From a virus: DNA of 64,000 nt. Of this stretch, positions 3-54,664 are shown piece by piece. Position numbers and translations under genes: made by a program. The stretch lies in IMG/VR virus record IMGVR_UViG_3300034071_003115, positions 15,110 through 79,109 of that record, one strand, 5' to 3'. The notes under the pieces are model-generated. The model was not told the DNA's origin, made no database searches, and saw only the letters and a program-made list of their open reading frames with translations. Position 1 is the stretch's first letter. Each line of letters starts with the position of its first letter.

Positions 3-3000
3 TTTGCAGTAATCGGAGACGGAATAAGGGCGATATCCGAGCTGATGAGGATAGACTTTGTCAGGGCCGCCGCGGTTGCGGCGCTTGCAATGAGGGGAAT
101 TGCCCTGGCGTTCAACACAAACCCAATTCTTCTTGGTATAACAGCCGTGATCGCTGCATTCGGCGTGCTCTCAAAGGAATATGCTCAAAACAGCGCGTTC
201 AGAGGAGTAGTTGACAACTTTGCGGTTCCAATGCAGGGGCTTGTTCGCGAAGTTCAGTCCAAGCTTGTTCCTGCCCTTCAATCCCTTGCGTCAGGTGCTG
301 GCGGTGCGTTCTTCGCTGAGCTGATCACTGGAATTACGCTTGTAATGCCGCTAATAAGCGTATTTATACGGCTGCTGAACATCTTCCTTGAGCTCCTTAC
401 AAGTATACCATTTGCAGTAGAGGCAATTGGGGCTTCTCTTGCGATTTTGGCAACCGGTAAGCTTTTTGGAAAACTTCTTTTTGGTTCCGCTGCAAAATTT
501 GGTCCCGCAGGAGAGCTTATCAAGGCACCTTCTGGCGGTGCACTTGGAGGCCTCCAGAAGCTCTTTGGCTCACTTGGTGCGTTTAGCGCAGGAACTGTTG
601 CCTCCAGACAGGCATATCAGATGGGCGCTCCGCTTGCCAACAAGGCAAGAACTGCGGCTGGTGAACTTAAGATTCAAAAAGTGGTCATGCAGAAGGTTGT
701 TGACCAGACCGGAAACGCTTTCAGCCCCGTTCAAAGACAAAATATTTCAGCAACAGTTGCAGCAGCGCAGGCGCAAGTTTCCGCAACAGCACAGACGGCG
801 CAGGGCGTAAGGAACCTTTCTGGGGTCGGTGGATCAAGACTTATTGGGGTTGCGGCACGGCAAGAATACATGTCCGGAGTCAGTGCCCTTGCAACAAGGG
901 ATACCCCAATAGCAGCCAGGCTGGCAGGTTTCGGCGCAGACCTTAAGTCTACTGGGGGATTCTTCAGGAATGCAGTAAGCGTCTTCAAGGAAAGTATCTC
1001 CACTTTTGCAAGGTCTATTGGCGGTGCCTTTGCGGGGCTTAGAGGAGCTTCTGCTTCGAGGGCTGCGGCAGTTGGATTGGCGGGCGGACCCCTAAGGCCA
1101 AGCATAGAGCGCGGAATCGGGGCATACCTCAGCACAAAAGGGGCAAAAAATGTTGTTCAGGATAGTGGTGGATTTGCTAACGCACTAAAGACTGGGGCGG
1201 GCGGACTTGCAGCACTAGGAAAGTCCCTGAAAGACGGGCTTGGACTGGTTGGTAAGTCTACCGTTCTTTTGACCGGCTTCTTTGCACTGTTTGACATTTT
1301 TGTCAACAAGGCAGATGTTATTAGGACGGCAATTTCATCTATAACATCCGTTATTGGCGGACTAGCTGGATTCCTGCTCGGGGGTCCAATCGGCGCCATC
1401 ATCGGCTCAATGCTCGGGTCAGCGGCAGGCGGAGTGATATCTGATGCCGTTGGAAGACCGCAATTCCAAGACGGAGAGGTTGCTGGCGAAGGCGTTGAGA
1501 TGGACATGACCCAGGCACAGATGGAGCAAGAAATCTGGAACAACGCATTGACAGACGGCAAGATGACGTTTGCCGAGATGGTTTCAATTGCCGAACAAAT
1601 TCCCCTTAAGGTTGACGACATTGTTACGTCATTCAAGGCCCTAAATCCGGAAATCGAATCAATAAATTTCGGAATTAAAGATGTTCTTGCTGCGCTCAAT
1701 GAGGCTGGCGGTTCGCTTAGCGCAGAAGAGGCGTTCACGAACGCGGCGGCACCTCTTGGCCTAAATACCAAAGAGATGCAGCAGAATATGGTTCTGCTAG
1801 ACAACATTCAATCAATGATTCAGAAGGTTTACGAAAACAAGCTTGCGTTTGAGTTTAAGACGCCAATCAGAAACGAATCGGGCGGAATAGTAAACAATCA
1901 GCTTGCAAATCTTGCCGCAATGAAGGCTCAGGCTGAAATTGTCGCCGCGGTAATGCAGGCTGGCCCGTTCACAAACGTAGACCAACTAAACCAAATGCTA
2001 GATACGCTTGCAAGCCGATTTATGGTAAGCAAAGAGCAGGCAGAGCAGTGGAATCTTCTCATCAATGGTGCTGAAGACTCAACTGAAGGCCTTTCAAGGG
2101 CAATTGAGAAGCTTAACGAAAAGCTTTCCTTCCTTAAGGCTAAGTTCAACATAGCATCCGGAGCCCTGCAAAACAGAATTCAGGCTCTGTTTGACAAGAG
2201 ATTCAAAGAGCAGCTTGAGAAGGCAAAAGAGGCGTTCCTTGCAACCCAGGAAGTCATTGTCGAGGGAACGACCTGGAACCTTAAGGCACTTAAGGACGAA
2301 ATTGAGGAGCAAGAGAAGAAGAATAGACTGCTCGCTGTTGAGAAAAGCCTTCGAGATGCAAATAGAAACATAGAAATGGCACGGCTTGCACTCTACGACG
2401 CATCTATTGATCCGCTTGAAGCTGCGGCAAGAATGCGAGAGGCCGAAGAGGCAAAGACTGATGCCGTAAAGCAGGCTGCGCTTGAGAGAAAGAGAATTGC
2501 CCTTGACGAGGCAATGGCAAGCGAACCGGTAACCAGGGGACTTGAGGAAATTGACGAGAGGTTTGAGGCGATGAGAATGAAGTTCCAGGAAGAGATGCAA
2601 AGAATCATGCTTCTCTTGGAACAAGGAAAAATTACAGGCGCAGAGGCAATTGCGAGAATTAAGGCCCTATACGGTCAATCGTTTGCAAGTATTGGCGACC
2701 TTGATGCGGAGCTTGCCGAAGATGCTGCCAATTTTGGGGAGTCATTCTTGGGGTCCTGGACAAAGACAATTGAAAAATTCATCAAGCTTGCAGATAAGAT
2801 TGCCAAGCTTGTCAAGAAAATCAAGCAGCTGCAAAACTCGCTTAACAACCCCGGAACAGGAGCCAATGACGATGACCCAGGAGGACAGTACACAACTCCG
2901 CCTGGGTCTGCTGGAAACGGTACATCAACGCTTGGCGGAAGGCCGTACGACAACTGGAGAGAGCATGGCGTCGGTGCTCAAATGGAAAAGCAGGTTGAGT

Positions 3001-3608
3001 CAGATGCCGCAGGGATGCAGGTTACCGCAAACAAGATGACTCTCGGTGCCCTAAGGCTGAGATTCATGACACTTTGGAAAGAAGTTCAAGATAGCGCAAA
3101 GAAAATGGCGCCAACAGGAATTTCTCCAACGGTTTGGGGGATTACACATTCAAATGCGCTAAAGATGTTCCTTGTTGGCACTGAGATGAGAAGGCTCTTT
3201 GCAACATCGATGAGCGTCGCACCGTCCTCAGCAGATTCTATACAGAAGCAGTTTGAGGTGCAGGTCACAAAGCTCAAGTCCACACTTAGCCCGCTTGGGA
3301 AGTATAACCCTGTTGCCGGTTTTGCAAGCGGCGGAACTATGATGGGCCCTGGTATATTTAGGGTAGGCGAGGCTGGCACGGAAACAATGCAGGTTACCCC
3401 GTATGGTGTCGCCAGGGTGTTCCCAAGGACATATCGACCAATACACGGCATTAGTGCAGCTGGCGGTAGCACATCCGGAGCGGTAAACGCAAGTGTTATA
3501 ATCAACAACCCAACTGTTAGAAGCGACCAAGACATCAGGAAGCTTGCCGAAGAAGTCTCAAGGGCCCAAAGGTCACTGTTGAGGTCGTCAGGCGTAGGAA
3601 GGATCTAA
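3..3608 (+). CDS. Tail tape measure protein (5'-truncated; frame open from window start)
   Basis: Long Ala/Gly-rich helical protein with hydrophobic stretches and coiled coil; C-terminal GFASGG...VGEAGTE motif typical of tape measures; followed by tail gene. Confidence 0.85.
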   Translation, partial: FAVIGDGIRAISELMRIDFVRAAAVAALAMRGIALAFNTNPILLGITAVIAAFGVLSKEYAQNSAFRGVVDNFAVPMQGLVREVQSKLVPALQSLASGAGGAFFAELITGITLVMPLISVFIRLLNIFLELLTSIPFAVEAIGASLAILATGKLFGKLLFGSAAKFGPAGELIKAPSGGALGGLQKLFGSLGAFSAGTVASRQAYQMGAPLANKARTAAGELKIQKVVMQKVVDQTGNAFSPVQRQNISATVAAAQAQVSATAQTAQGVRNLSGVGGSRLIGVAARQEYMSGVSALATRDTPIAARLAGFGADLKSTGGFFRNAVSVFKESISTFARSIGGAFAGLRGASASRAAAVGLAGGPLRPSIERGIGAYLSTKGAKNVVQDSGGFANALKTGAGGLAALGKSLKDGLGLVGKSTVLLTGFFALFDIFVNKADVIRTAISSITSVIGGLAGFLLGGPIGAIIGSMLGSAAGGVISDAVGRPQFQDGEVAGEGVEMDMTQAQMEQEIWNNALTDGKMTFAEMVSIAEQIPLKVDDIVTSFKALNPEIESINFGIKDVLAALNEAGGSLSAEEAFTNAAAPLGLNTKEMQQNMVLLDNIQSMIQKVYENKLAFEFKTPIRNESGGIVNNQLANLAAMKAQAEIVAAVMQAGPFTNVDQLNQMLDTLASRFMVSKEQAEQWNLLINGAEDSTEGLSRAIEKLNEKLSFLKAKFNIASGALQNRIQALFDKRFKEQLEKAKEAFLATQEVIVEGTTWNLKALKDEIEEQEKKNRLLAVEKSLRDANRNIEMARLALYDASIDPLEAAARMREAEEAKTDAVKQAALERKRIALDEAMASEPVTRGLEEIDERFEAMRMKFQEEMQRIMLLLEQGKITGAEAIARIKALYGQSFASIGDLDAELAEDAANFGESFLGSWTKTIEKFIKLADKIAKLVKKIKQLQNSLNNPGTGANDDDPGGQYTTPPGSAGNGTSTLGGRPYDNWREHGVGAQMEKQVESDAAGMQVTANKMTLGALRLRFMTLWKEVQDSAKKMAPTGISPTVWGITHSNALKMFLVGTEMRRLFATSMSVAPSSADSIQKQFEVQVTKLKSTLSPLGKYNPVAGFASGGTMMGPGIFRVGEAGTETMQVTPYGVARVFPRTYRPIHGISAAGGSTSGAVNASVIINNPTVRSDQDIRKLAEEVSRAQRSLLRSSGVGRI

Positions 3609-14435: not shown

Positions 14436-16037
14436 TTACTCCTCGTCTTGCGCCTCAAGGACGCGCTGAACATATGGGCTCAACCAAGGCGCGCGCTCTG
14501 CGGCCTTGACGTTGACCTTCTGTGAATTCCTGTCGACGAACTTTCGACCGATCCCAAGATCGCTAATGCGATCAATAAGATCGAGCGCTTTCGCAAGATC
14601 TTCTTCGACCTTGGCCTTCGACTCAAGGAGCTCGGTCACTTTTGCCGCGAGGGCGGTAACCTCCTCCTGAGCAGCATTGGCTGCATCGAGAGCTGACTTC
14701 GCGATCGACTCCACTTCCTCAAAGGAAGAGGCCTCGGTCTCGACACTAATAACAACCGCCTCGGCCACTTCGGGCTGTACGGATGATTCATCGGCAATGG
14801 ACTTTTCGGCGTCGCCGGTAACGAGCTCAGCGCCGAGCTCTTGCAGGGCCTCGACATTGGCGTCGACAGGCTCCTCCTCAACGACTTCCTTCTCGTCCTC
14901 TACCTTCTCAGTAACTTCGCCATCGGCCACATCTTCGGCAGAAGCCTTGATTTCATCAAGCTTCTCCTCTGAGTCCGCGGCTGCCGCATCCGGAGCGGAG
15001 GGAGCAACAGATGCGGCAGCTGGCTGCTTCTCTTCAGAATCCGTGCTGACCGTAACGGTCACGCGGGTCTTCTTCTCTAGATCATTGGTCTCGTCCCCGG
15101 CGGCGGTCTCAACGACCTCCCCAGCGAAGAGATCCTTCTCGGTCTCTGACATTTCTGTCTCCTCGTCTTCTTCCGCCATAGGGAGCGGATTAATTTTGGT
15201 GAGAGCGCTGACCTTTTGGCCAACGAGCATCTCGGTTGCTTCCCAGTTTCCCTCTTCGCCCTCATAAATGCGAACAAGAGCTGCTGGATCTTCTGGTGTG
15301 GCTTCAATTGAATACTCTGAACCTTCAGCACCAAGGGTGCCTTCGGTCATAACGTACTCAACAGCGCCGCACATTGTCTCGCCGTCCTCATTTGACCAGA
15401 GAACCCAGTCCCCAGCAATGACGGAGCCAGCCTCTGCCTTAGAGGTTACTTCTGTCTCTGACTTCTCTTCTTCGATCACGCCCTCAAGCTCGTCAATATC
15501 GACGCTACCAGAGCGGAGGCTCTTTACTGCGTTCTGCAGGTAGGATCTCTGGTTGGCAGGAATGCCAACAACGCTCGCCTCAAGTAGGCGAACCTTCTCA
15601 ATAAGGATTGACTCGGGCCTGTCTCCTTCGGCAGCCTTGCGACGCGCCTTTTCAACGCGGGCTCCAATGGAGAGACCAAGCTTAACCCCGCGCTTGATTG
15701 CGCGATAAGCGCGAAGCGCCTCTGGGTTTTCGTCTTCGTTTACCACCCGAATATTGAGATCGAGGTCATAAACCTCTTCGTTTGTTTCGCTGTCATATCG
15801 TCTAACAATCTGGGCATCCGTGGCGGAGCCAAAAAGGTCCTCTGGGACATTGTAATTATGATTGAGGAACACCGTCATATTCTGTCTGGCTGTTTCAGCC
15901 ATTGTCTTCAGGGCATCCAGCGACATCTCATCGCCATGCAGGTCCCGAATTGTTGAAGAAGTTGTTCCGGTTACATATCGCTCGCCATTTTCAGACTCAT
16001 AGGCCTTCAGGGCGTTGGTGTAAATTTTAAAGTCCAA
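14436..16037 (-). CDS. HK97-type prohead protease with acidic/coiled-coil scaffold extension
   Basis: DLHGD, FLNHN, GLSIG, LLEASVVGIPAN motifs; long acidic C-terminus. Confidence 0.85.
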   Translation of the reverse strand: MDFKIYTNALKAYESENGERYVTGTTSSTIRDLHGDEMSLDALKTMAETARQNMTVFLNHNYNVPEDLFGSATDAQIVRRYDSETNEEVYDLDLNIRVVNEDENPEALRAYRAIKRGVKLGLSIGARVEKARRKAAEGDRPESILIEKVRLLEASVVGIPANQRSYLQNAVKSLRSGSVDIDELEGVIEEEKSETEVTSKAEAGSVIAGDWVLWSNEDGETMCGAVEYVMTEGTLGAEGSEYSIEATPEDPAALVRIYEGEEGNWEATEMLVGQKVSALTKINPLPMAEEDEETEMSETEKDLFAGEVVETAAGDETNDLEKKTRVTVTVSTDSEEKQPAAASVAPSAPDAAAADSEEKLDEIKASAEDVADGEVTEKVEDEKEVVEEEPVDANVEALQELGAELVTGDAEKSIADESSVQPEVAEAVVISVETEASSFEEVESIAKSALDAANAAQEEVTALAAKVTELLESKAKVEEDLAKALDLIDRISDLGIGRKFVDRNSQKVNVKAAERAPWLSPYVQRVLEAQDEE

Positions 16038-37336: not shown

Positions 37337-37578
37337 AAAATGATGAGGGTCTGACTGGCACCACACCAACCAGACCCTCATCGGCATTTCGCTGCCTTTG
37401 ACGCTTATCCTCTTGCGAGGAGAGGCTTCACCTCTCGGCTACCTCTTGCGAACGGCATAGGTGTCGGTTAGGCACCCCCACCGCTCGTCCTTATCGTCTC
37501 GGGTAGTTCGTCTACAACTACCAACCAGCCGCAGCCCCATAAGCCCGCCACCTTCACAGCGGCACCAGAGCGGCTCGT
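37337..37578 (-). ncRNA. Putative structured ncRNA 1 (~240 nt)
   Basis: Own TTGACG-N17-TAGAAT promoter and terminator, no SD-led ORF, several hairpins including one with a GCAA tetraloop. Confidence 0.6.
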
Positions 37579-37698
37579 GAGGTGATTCTAAACGAACATC
37601 TTCCAGCCGTCAAGAGTTCTAATCACACGGGCCGCGGCCCGTGTGAGGTGAACAAAAAAGGCGAGGTTTCCCTCGCCTTTCTTGACCAGACCCCCCGA

Positions 37699-37980
37699 TT
37701 ACTTGACTTCGTAGACCTCGCCGCCAAAGCGAACCGCCGTGATTGCGTCAAGCGCAACCGAACGATACGCCTTCTTGGTGATGTCGTAGACGAAGATGAG
37801 GTCTTTCGCCGCCGCGTCATACGCAGCCTCACCGCCTTTGAGATGCTTCTTGACTCCGAGTCGCGCCGTCATCTTGCGAACCTCGCCCGTCGTGCGCTTC
37901 ACGAAGTCCACGCCGAAGATTGCGCCGTTGCTGTTGCGAATCATTTCGGCTGCCTCTGCCAACTTGATTGCCTTGCTCAT
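37699..37980 (-). CDS. SH3-fold / WYL-like (DUF2693-like) protein (array B)
   Basis: V.FVKRTTGEVRKM...VYD....YRSV.LD.I. Confidence 0.65.
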   Translation of the reverse strand: MSKAIKLAEAAEMIRNSNGAIFGVDFVKRTTGEVRKMTARLGVKKHLKGGEAAYDAAAKDLIFVYDITKKAYRSVALDAITAVRFGGEVYEVK

Positions 37981-38577: not shown

Positions 38578-38805
38578 AAAATACAAGACCCTCGGAGCCG
38601 TCGCCCCGAGGGTCTTGCTTCGGATTTGTTGTCTAGGGACTAATCACTTTCCCTAGACTCCTTTTCCTTCCGCTCCGCCGATCCATTGGCACCTAGCGGT
38701 CATCGTCCTTTGCGTCTCTATACCCGCATTTTTTGGCTGCGGCATCTGCTCGCTCGTCCAGAGTCTCACCTAGTCGGTGTCGCTTCATCTAGAATCGCTT
38801 CCGAC
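38578..38805 (-). ncRNA. Putative structured ncRNA 2 (~230 nt)
   Basis: Own TTGACA-N18-GAGAAT promoter and terminator; only a 31-codon ORF without clear SD; shares a motif with ncRNA 1. Confidence 0.5.
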
Positions 38806-38898
38806 AAGTGGATTCTCCCACACCCGAAACAGACCTGTCAAGCCCCTATTTCAGTTCCATTCCAATCACCCGCCGGTGATTGGAGCCGAACTATTTAT

Positions 38899-40636: not shown

Positions 40637-40837
40637 TTACTTCCAGTCGCTTGGGATTTCACGCCAAGTCAATCCCCCGTTATCGCAGTCTGCCGAGTAG
40701 ATGTCGCACTCTTGACACCACACCACATAGCAGTCCTCTAAATGCTTGTCGCAGTCAGACCAAAGCCAATGCTCTTCCCGCCTATCCATCGGGCAGTCGC
40801 AGGGCTTTCGTTTAGATGTGGGGAATAGGCGGCTCAC
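40637..40837 (-). CDS. Cys-rich small protein (array B)
   Basis: GTG start overlapping upstream stop. Confidence 0.55.
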   Translation of the reverse strand: MSRLFPTSKRKPCDCPMDRREEHWLWSDCDKHLEDCYVVWCQECDIYSADCDNGGLTWREIPSDWK

Positions 40838-41283
40838 AATACCTCACACCCTTTCAGGTCAGCGCACTTCTCCAAGAACGCCTGCCACTCTCGGATAAGA
40901 CCAACCCACGAAGTCGCCTCCTCGCTTGGGAACGCCTTCGTGTGGTCGTCCATAAACGGATTGTTTGCGATTATGGCAATCATTTCGTTTTTGATTTGCT
41001 CATCGCTCATAGACGCGATTTTCTCGGAGAGTGCGCGGCACTCATAGTCCTTGATGACCTCGCCGCTATTATCAAGTAGATTCTCGTTCACCTCGTCAAA
41101 GCCAATCGCATCGTGGAACTCACGCAACATCGGCATACCCCAGATGTTCAGACGGAAGTAGAGCGTATCGGGAGCCTTCTCGTCATACGAGCCGTCCTCG
41201 TTTACCCACATTGAGCGGTGCTTCTTTGCGTGTTCAGCCGCAGCCTTTCGGTCTGGTAGCAGCGAGTAGATGTCGTATCCCAT
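40834..41283 (-). CDS. Hypothetical protein (array B)
   Basis: AAGGAGG RBS; MGYD...YFRLNIWG.P motif. Confidence 0.7.
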   Translation of the reverse strand: MGYDIYSLLPDRKAAAEHAKKHRSMWVNEDGSYDEKAPDTLYFRLNIWGMPMLREFHDAIGFDEVNENLLDNSGEVIKDYECRALSEKIASMSDEQIKNEMIAIIANNPFMDDHTKAFPSEEATSWVGLIREWQAFLEKCADLKGCEVL

Positions 41284-48220: not shown

Positions 48221-48296
48221 TGGTAGGGACGCCTGGACTCGAACCAGGAACCGCTGAGATATAAGCTCAGTGCTCTAACCGTTGAGCTACGTCCCC
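48221..48296 (-). tRNA. tRNA-Ile, anticodon UAU
   Basis: GGGGACG acceptor, D arm, CTGAG-CTTATAT-CTCAG anticodon arm, GGTTCGAGTCC T arm, encoded CCA. Confidence 0.9.
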
Positions 48297-54588: not shown

Positions 54589-54664
54589 TGGCGCCGTCGA
54601 CAGGAATCGAACCTGCGACCAAAGGCTTAGAAGTCCCTTGCTCTATCCACTGAGCTACGACGGC
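54589..54664 (-). tRNA. tRNA-Arg, anticodon UCU
   Basis: GCCGTCG acceptor, CTTCTAA anticodon loop, GGTTCGATTCC T arm, encoded CCA. Confidence 0.9.

Follow-up and report, generated by a model that had tools for sequence, protein, structure and literature searches.

The pRNA of phage phi29 is a phage-encoded structured RNA whose function needs pairing between two loops with covarying letters. It is rare for an RNA to have a complex fold with an invariant junction and dozens of covarying pairs, and RNAs of this sort have earlier proved to be ribozymes, riboswitches, or ribonucleoprotein cores. For the ROOL, GOLLD, and OLE RNAs, a cryo-EM study reports an intermolecular kissing loop that covariation had previously suggested to be a tertiary contact (10.1101/2024.12.08.627333). 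In T4-type phages, small non-essential genes in plastic genome regions are framed by promoter-early stem-loops (PeSLs), consisting of strong sigma70-like promoters and stem-loop terminators, which mediate modular gene shuffling (PMC2839356). In addition, a published catalog lists 10,006 anonymous candidates for structured RNAs of viral and phage origin, of which 8,495 derive from IMG/VR (PMC10690425). Here, we describe a cassette in a phage genome whose cargo is almost certainly a real structured RNA gene, representing a new family.

The DNA analyzed (hereafter the window) is a stretch of 64,000 nucleotides, positions 15,110 to 79,109 of the IMG/VR virus record IMGVR_UViG_3300034071_003115, which is 79,109 bp long and judged 94% complete. 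The record encodes a portal, a capsid protein, and a conventional large terminase whose identity to the terminases of cultured phages stays below 28%. Read from its genes, the source is an unclassified tailed phage, because structural genes are present, the terminase falls below this identity, and only a sub-threshold TMP_3 match is found in a 2794-aa ORF. The C-terminal part of this ORF (G000:C1:10333-18717) occupies positions 3-3608 of the window on the plus strand; its sole Pfam match is the TMP_3 tape-measure family at 40.3 bits, below the curated cut-off of 41, and the ORF would be unusually long if it is a tape measure. The counterpart in the relative G001 comprises 3534 aa. An N4-like assignment of the phage was rejected, as the 2794-aa ORF has no polymerase match in Pfam, just the sub-threshold TMP_3 one. 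The window also carries genes for tRNA-Ile (TAT; 48221-48296, minus strand) and tRNA-Arg (TCT; 54589-54664, minus strand), both of which read A-ending codons (AUA and AGA).

Between 34 and 42 kb of the window, 14 promoter-like sites were observed vs 3.7 expected, indicating that an array of cassettes is real, and terminator-like sites numbered 16 vs 7.9 expected. The frame characteristic of PeSLs, a strong sigma70-like promoter and a stem-loop terminator around small accessory genes, is present in the window. The cassette studied here lies on the minus strand. Upstream of it, a gene encoding a 93-aa WYL_2-like protein (weak Pfam match, 17.5 bits; stop codon at 37699, minus strand) is followed by its own terminator and then by a perfect palindrome of 24 bp ("class B element"; 37623-37646, read directly), which ends 9 bp upstream of the -35 hexamer. 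This palindrome is a component of the cassette frame and lies outside the RNA. Perfect 24-bp palindromes likewise precede the -35 hexamer of most minus-strand cassettes by about 9 bp, and these elements before cassette promoters may serve as the site of an upstream regulator or as a recombination frame. The sigma70-type promoter, TTGACG-N17-TAGAAT (37585-37613, minus strand), matches 10 of 12 positions of the sigma70 consensus and places the predicted start near 37578. From there, the predicted transcript, an ncRNA gene of about 240 nt supported by promoter, terminator, fold, homologs, and covariation, extends over 37337-37578 on the minus strand. It closes with a terminator-like hairpin of 19 bp, termed P7 (37382-37342, minus strand), and a U-rich tail whose U-run reaches 37334; the next palindrome, promoter, and Shine-Dalgarno-led gene follow downstream on the same strand. 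The arrangement proposed in an earlier note on this DNA, a promoter, about 240 nt, and a strong terminator, is thereby borne out, and the description of the RNA as "early" in that note is drawn from the promoter type only.

An open reading frame of 33 codons (37439-37540, minus strand; ATG at 37540) lies within the transcript and lacks conservation as a gene. In relatives sharing more than 90% identity, it spans 33, more than 70, 22, or 16 codons, with a premature stop in one relative and a 1-nt indel in three. Variable sites at codon positions 1, 2, and 3 number 6, 3, and 6, so that third-position bias is absent, and substitutions in the RNA occur as compensatory pairs. The start of the ORF sits in a 5' extension missing from most homologs, and no frame of either strand stays open in more than 6 of the 43 sequences. 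An ATG that follows a purine-rich stretch by 6 nt speaks for a small protein gene, whether in the ORF at 37540-37439 or in another frame; set against the varying length, the disrupted copies, the members lacking the ATG region, and the lack of a family-wide open frame, this reading has a negligible probability, and for the family it is already refuted. The earlier note had called the ORF SD-less, which is inexact, as GGTGG ends 6 nt before the ATG; this stretch is immaterial because the ORF is not conserved. The codon-level conservation that the same note had set against an ncRNA was absent when close relatives were compared, and the cassette cargo is predicted to encode no protein.

Folded as a single sequence, the transcript gives a z-score of -5.05 with the terminator and -1.94 without it. 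As the fold beats chance solely with the terminator, the case for an RNA rests on comparative evidence, for which relatives were collected. The first homologs were obtained via the downstream DUF3846 gene from five related viral contigs, all of which contain a similar stretch, in two of them at a different position, and their alignment displayed invariant blocks separated by stems with compensatory changes. A scan with a two-block pattern retrieved 27 viral and 80 metagenome loci. With a covariance model built from 19 sequences, 62 loci scored 137-185 bits and the remainder fell below 20 bits, bar one truncated copy at 54 bits. These approximately 62 homologs, from viral and metagenome contigs, represent 43 distinct sequences, and the RNA occurs once per genome. 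At least 120 further loci from a loose-pattern scan of genome contigs were discarded as chance matches, because their model scores did not exceed 18 bits.

In the model alignment of the 43 distinct sequences, standard pairs fill 95.3% of the cells of the 41 proposed pairs, and both-sided changes occur in 28 of the 41. When the 3' partners were slid by 1-3 columns, pairing dropped to 25-44% and the covariation score to at most 0.10, compared with 0.516 observed, and none of 500 shuffles attained the observed values for pairing or covariation. In addition, RNAalifold independently predicted most of the helices. The search for covariation among homologs, suggested in the earlier note as a check, thus upholds its view that the cargo is a structured ncRNA, together with the non-conserved ORF and the sigma70-type promoter. 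An Rfam search had been suggested there as well, and no family of Rfam 15 (4227 models) matched: for the whole window at gathering thresholds, the only hits were the two tRNAs; for the RNA region at E<=10, only terminator-like chance matches of at most 22 bits appeared; and for seven homolog loci at E<=10, none coincided with the RNA on its own strand, the sole overlapping row being a match of 22.5 bits on the opposite strand of one locus. BLASTN queries with the window copy and a typical member returned no match among 50,697 GenBank phage records. The RNA thus appears to form a previously uncatalogued family common to many uncultured tailed phages, which the anonymous catalog of PMC10690425 may or may not include.

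The conserved core of about 205 nt, read on the minus strand, comprises the helices P1 and P2, a four-way junction with P3, P4, and P5, then P6 and the long 3' hairpin P7. P1 (37574-37570 with 37532-37528), identified from the fold and the alignments, is a plain 5-bp hairpin in most homologs, and in the window clade it encloses a clade-specific insertion with two small hairpins; its pairs covary (helix 1), the 5' strand of the window clade falling outside the model. The P2 hairpin (37522-37502; helix 3) is paired in 100% of cells, with both-sided changes in four of five pairs. The four-way junction is closed by PJ, a helix of 4 bp formed by GACG (37498-37495) and CGUC (37403-37400), next to which two identical AUAAG strands (37494-37490 and 37408-37404) face each other. 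The letters of PJ and the AUAAG strands are invariant in all 43 distinct sequences, which is partly so by construction, because the collection scans required those letters; they are also invariant in six sequences found through the neighboring protein. The facing GAUAAG letters recall the UAA/GAN internal-loop motif. P3 (37489-37448; helix 5), a long hairpin with an internal loop and an apical loop (L3, 37471-37465), supported by per-sequence folds, shows both-sided changes in all seven pairs. P4 (37446-37421; helices 6 and 7) contains a GNRA-capped inner hairpin, P5 (37420-37409; helix 8) carries a GCAA tetraloop, and P6 (37395-37384; helix 9) is a small hairpin with a GNRA-like loop, paired in 82% of cells and with both-sided changes in all three pairs. 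Four hairpins that the earlier note had picked out by eye, GGTAGTT/AACTACC, AGAGG/CCTCT, TCCTC-GCAA-GAGGA, and GGCA/TGCC, correspond to P2, P4, P5, and P6, respectively, each with covariation across homologs. Its long-range GCCGCTC/GAGCGGT pair is unsupported, as the 3' half belongs to P3, whose pairs covary, the 5' half belongs to P1, and the 5' extension is missing from most homologs.

Loop contacts may add a further layer to this fold. The joining strand J1/2 (37523-37527, minus strand), five letters reading UGGUU here and UAGUU in most homologs, is complementary to L3, with 84% of cells paired and both-sided changes in one pair only (helix 2), and a pseudoknot between the two is possible. 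At the place of P7, a hairpin occurs in every homolog, followed by a U-run in about half. Its apical loop is complementary to L3 as well, and both loops vary together between clades, with C-G replaced by U-A at two positions and A-U by G-C at a third. Compared with composition-preserving shuffles, this complementarity is significant for 3 of 11 loop types (P 0.003-0.03); taken over the duplex-energy and shuffle tests, significance is partial only, and the statistics are weak for the commonest loop types. L3 and the P7 loop probably kiss, either within one molecule or between molecules. A divergent RNA subtype of 123 nt was also encountered at two loci (L254:7694-7816 and L248:8628-8750; 45-51 bits), which lacks P1, P2, and the conserved P3 loop and retains the four-way junction, in which the first PJ pair reads C-G instead of G-C.

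The genomic surroundings of the RNA differ from phage to phage. In 18 of 48 distinct contexts the RNA has its own sigma70-type promoter, whose end is separated from the model start by 4 nt (34 nt in the window clade), and in 23 of the 48 it begins 2-9 nt past the stop codon of the gene before it. A few clades have a Shine-Dalgarno site and a gene after P7, in place of the U-run. Flanking genes vary by locus and are drawn from a pool encoding RadC-like (labeled by sequence), DUF3846 and DUF7249 (labeled by Pfam), WYL_2-like, and unnamed small proteins; this variation is evidence against the control of one particular gene. A constant place upstream of a coherent set of genes, as would mark a cis-regulatory leader, was not seen. 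Two complete phage genomes, 46 and 43 kb in size, also contain the RNA and share only about 5-8 ORFs with the 79-kb phage, compared with about 60 ORFs shared by a 78-kb relative. The RNA is a mobile module, exchanged as a unit among otherwise unrelated phages.

A second cassette lacking a conserved ORF lies nearby in the window (38578-38841, minus strand, promoter to terminator). Its transcript of about 225 nt (38806-38578, minus strand) has a fold z-score of -5.8. At least 13 lineages with the first RNA also have this cassette in conserved form, often directly adjoining that RNA. Conservation does not extend to the ATG of its 31-codon ORF, and its terminator hairpin has an invariant apical loop. 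The cassette represents a different RNA family, since the model of the first RNA does not match it.

As a whole, these features are best explained, although at just short of an even chance, by an ncRNA family that would be host-transcribed, mobile, stable, trans-acting, and most likely protein-binding. Host RNA polymerase would transcribe the RNA from the near-consensus promoter, within an array of small accessory-gene cassettes, and P7 would double as an intrinsic terminator in the window phage. The RNA would then accumulate as a stable, compact fold protected by P7, act in trans, and most likely bind a protein through its invariant junction, serving as a decoy or sponge or else as the RNA component of a ribonucleoprotein. 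Action in trans rather than cis regulation is likely, because the genetic neighborhood is not conserved. An invariant junction beside freely varying stems indicates a specific binding surface, and a protein would be its likeliest target because of the accessory-gene context. That the RNA binds specifically a protein remains a tentative proposal, standing somewhat below even. The role of protein sponge or anti-defense decoy put forward in the earlier note would fit this context.

The same invariant junction letters, set among freely varying stems, are typical of ligand-binding RNAs and would also suit a cis element, such as a riboswitch-like leader or a processive antiterminator tuning how far transcription runs past P7 into the next cassette. 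In about half of the contexts P7 serves as a terminator, and some phages have a ribosome-binding site and a gene directly after it, so that a cis role is conceivable there. For the family, a cis element is nevertheless improbable, as the downstream gene varies by locus and has its own promoter in the window, nearly half of the contexts (23 of 48) place the RNA at the 3' end of an upstream gene, and P7 is very stable and is kept even without the U-run; a non-systematic look for alternative pairing revealed none. The loops invite another reading, namely a self-assembling RNA in which the P3 and P7 loops would pair between molecules to build a dimer, ring, or cage, much like the loops of the phi29 pRNA or the kissing loops in ROOL and GOLLD cages. 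Their complementarity is maintained across clades by different letter pairs, J1/2 offers a second possible partner for the P3 loop, and the kissing loop in the study of ROOL, GOLLD, and OLE is reported to be intermolecular (bioRxiv 10.1101/2024.12.08.627333). Self-assembly is still unlikely for the present RNA, which is far smaller than ROOL or GOLLD and has no Rfam match to the phi29 RNA or any other family; the loop-pairing statistics are weak for the commonest types, and sequence cannot separate an intramolecular from an intermolecular contact.

Catalysis or small-molecule capture would likewise be compatible with a complex fold that contains three GNRA-type loops and an invariant junction core. 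The RNA could be a ribozyme or a small-molecule sponge, for example an aptamer for a nucleotide second messenger of host immunity, and its RadC-like, DUF3846, and DUF7249 neighbors are of kinds often linked with anti-defense. We consider this quite improbable, given that no likeness to the ribozyme or riboswitch models of Rfam 15 was found, and we know of no RNA sponge for nucleotide immune signals. A protein-free phage weapon spread as a cassette, whether a ring or cage built through P3/P7 kissing loops or an aptamer for a host immune nucleotide, would be a correspondingly doubtful prospect. The reading of a mobile, trans-acting RNA that most likely binds a protein remains preferred.

No phage protein tracks the RNA perfectly, each of three candidates being missing from some RNA-bearing genomes. 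The WYL_2-like 93-aa protein encoded just upstream was rejected as a partner, since three RNA-bearing genomes with a completeness of at least 90% do not encode it. A 76-aa protein with a QIHTNGA motif is encoded directly upstream of the RNA in 26 of 58 loci, ending a few nucleotides before it (seen 239 to 9 nt upstream in L211, L198, L170, and others), and was likewise rejected, being absent from the window genome and three other genomes. The best lead for an RNA partner is a 149-aa protein of unassigned family, named MGYDI after its N-terminus (window 40834-41283, minus strand). All four near-complete genomes that contain the RNA encode it, and it was not detected in three partial ones. Its gene adjoins the RNA in both unrelated small phages and is one of only about five that the window phage shares with them, and in 18 of 22 loci encoding a full-length homolog the RNA lies at most 6 kb away. 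The AlphaFold model of the MGYDI protein is confident (pLDDT 93.8); a comparison with the PDB gave no clear match (best, YfbM, E 0.1), and the protein atlas returned unnamed clusters only. The identity of the partner would tell whether phages use folded RNAs, besides proteins, as exchangeable accessory functions. The RNA sits in a genome region where phages keep host-takeover and anti-defense genes, and its core of about 205 nt is small enough for chemical probing, crystallography, and cryo-EM. In addition, "empty" cassettes in the early regions of phages merit screening for RNA genes.

Collectively, this RNA shares traits with several described systems and coincides with none of them. Like ROOL and GOLLD, for which neither a protein partner nor a function has been established (10.1101/2024.12.08.627333), it is phage-borne, with an ornate fold defined by covariation and with putative loop contacts of the pseudoknot or kissing type. 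Unlike these RNAs, which exceed 500 nt and lie beside tRNA islands, it measures about 205-240 nt, has no covariance-model match, and resides in an array of accessory-gene cassettes. The phi29 pRNA is similar in size, is also phage-encoded, and depends on the pairing of two loops; in the present RNA, two loops are complementary and may pair within or between molecules. The present RNA differs in having no Rfam match and in belonging to a phage with a conventional large terminase and portal. According to the working model, a stable trans-acting RNA would titrate a protein, as do 6S RNA, CsrB/RsmY, pseudo-ToxI, and RNA anti-CRISPRs, and its cassette neighbors are of the host-takeover or anti-defense kind. 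In contrast to 6S RNA, CsrB/RsmY, and the decoys, it shows no sequence or structure match to them and lacks repeated GGA loops, a 6S-like bubble, and repeats of the CRISPR or ToxI type. The cassette itself resembles PeSLs, with which it shares a strong promoter, a stem-loop frame, and mobility. The phage, however, is not T4-like, a 24-bp palindrome precedes the promoter, and, whereas PeSLs are frames rather than cargo, the cargo here is itself an RNA.
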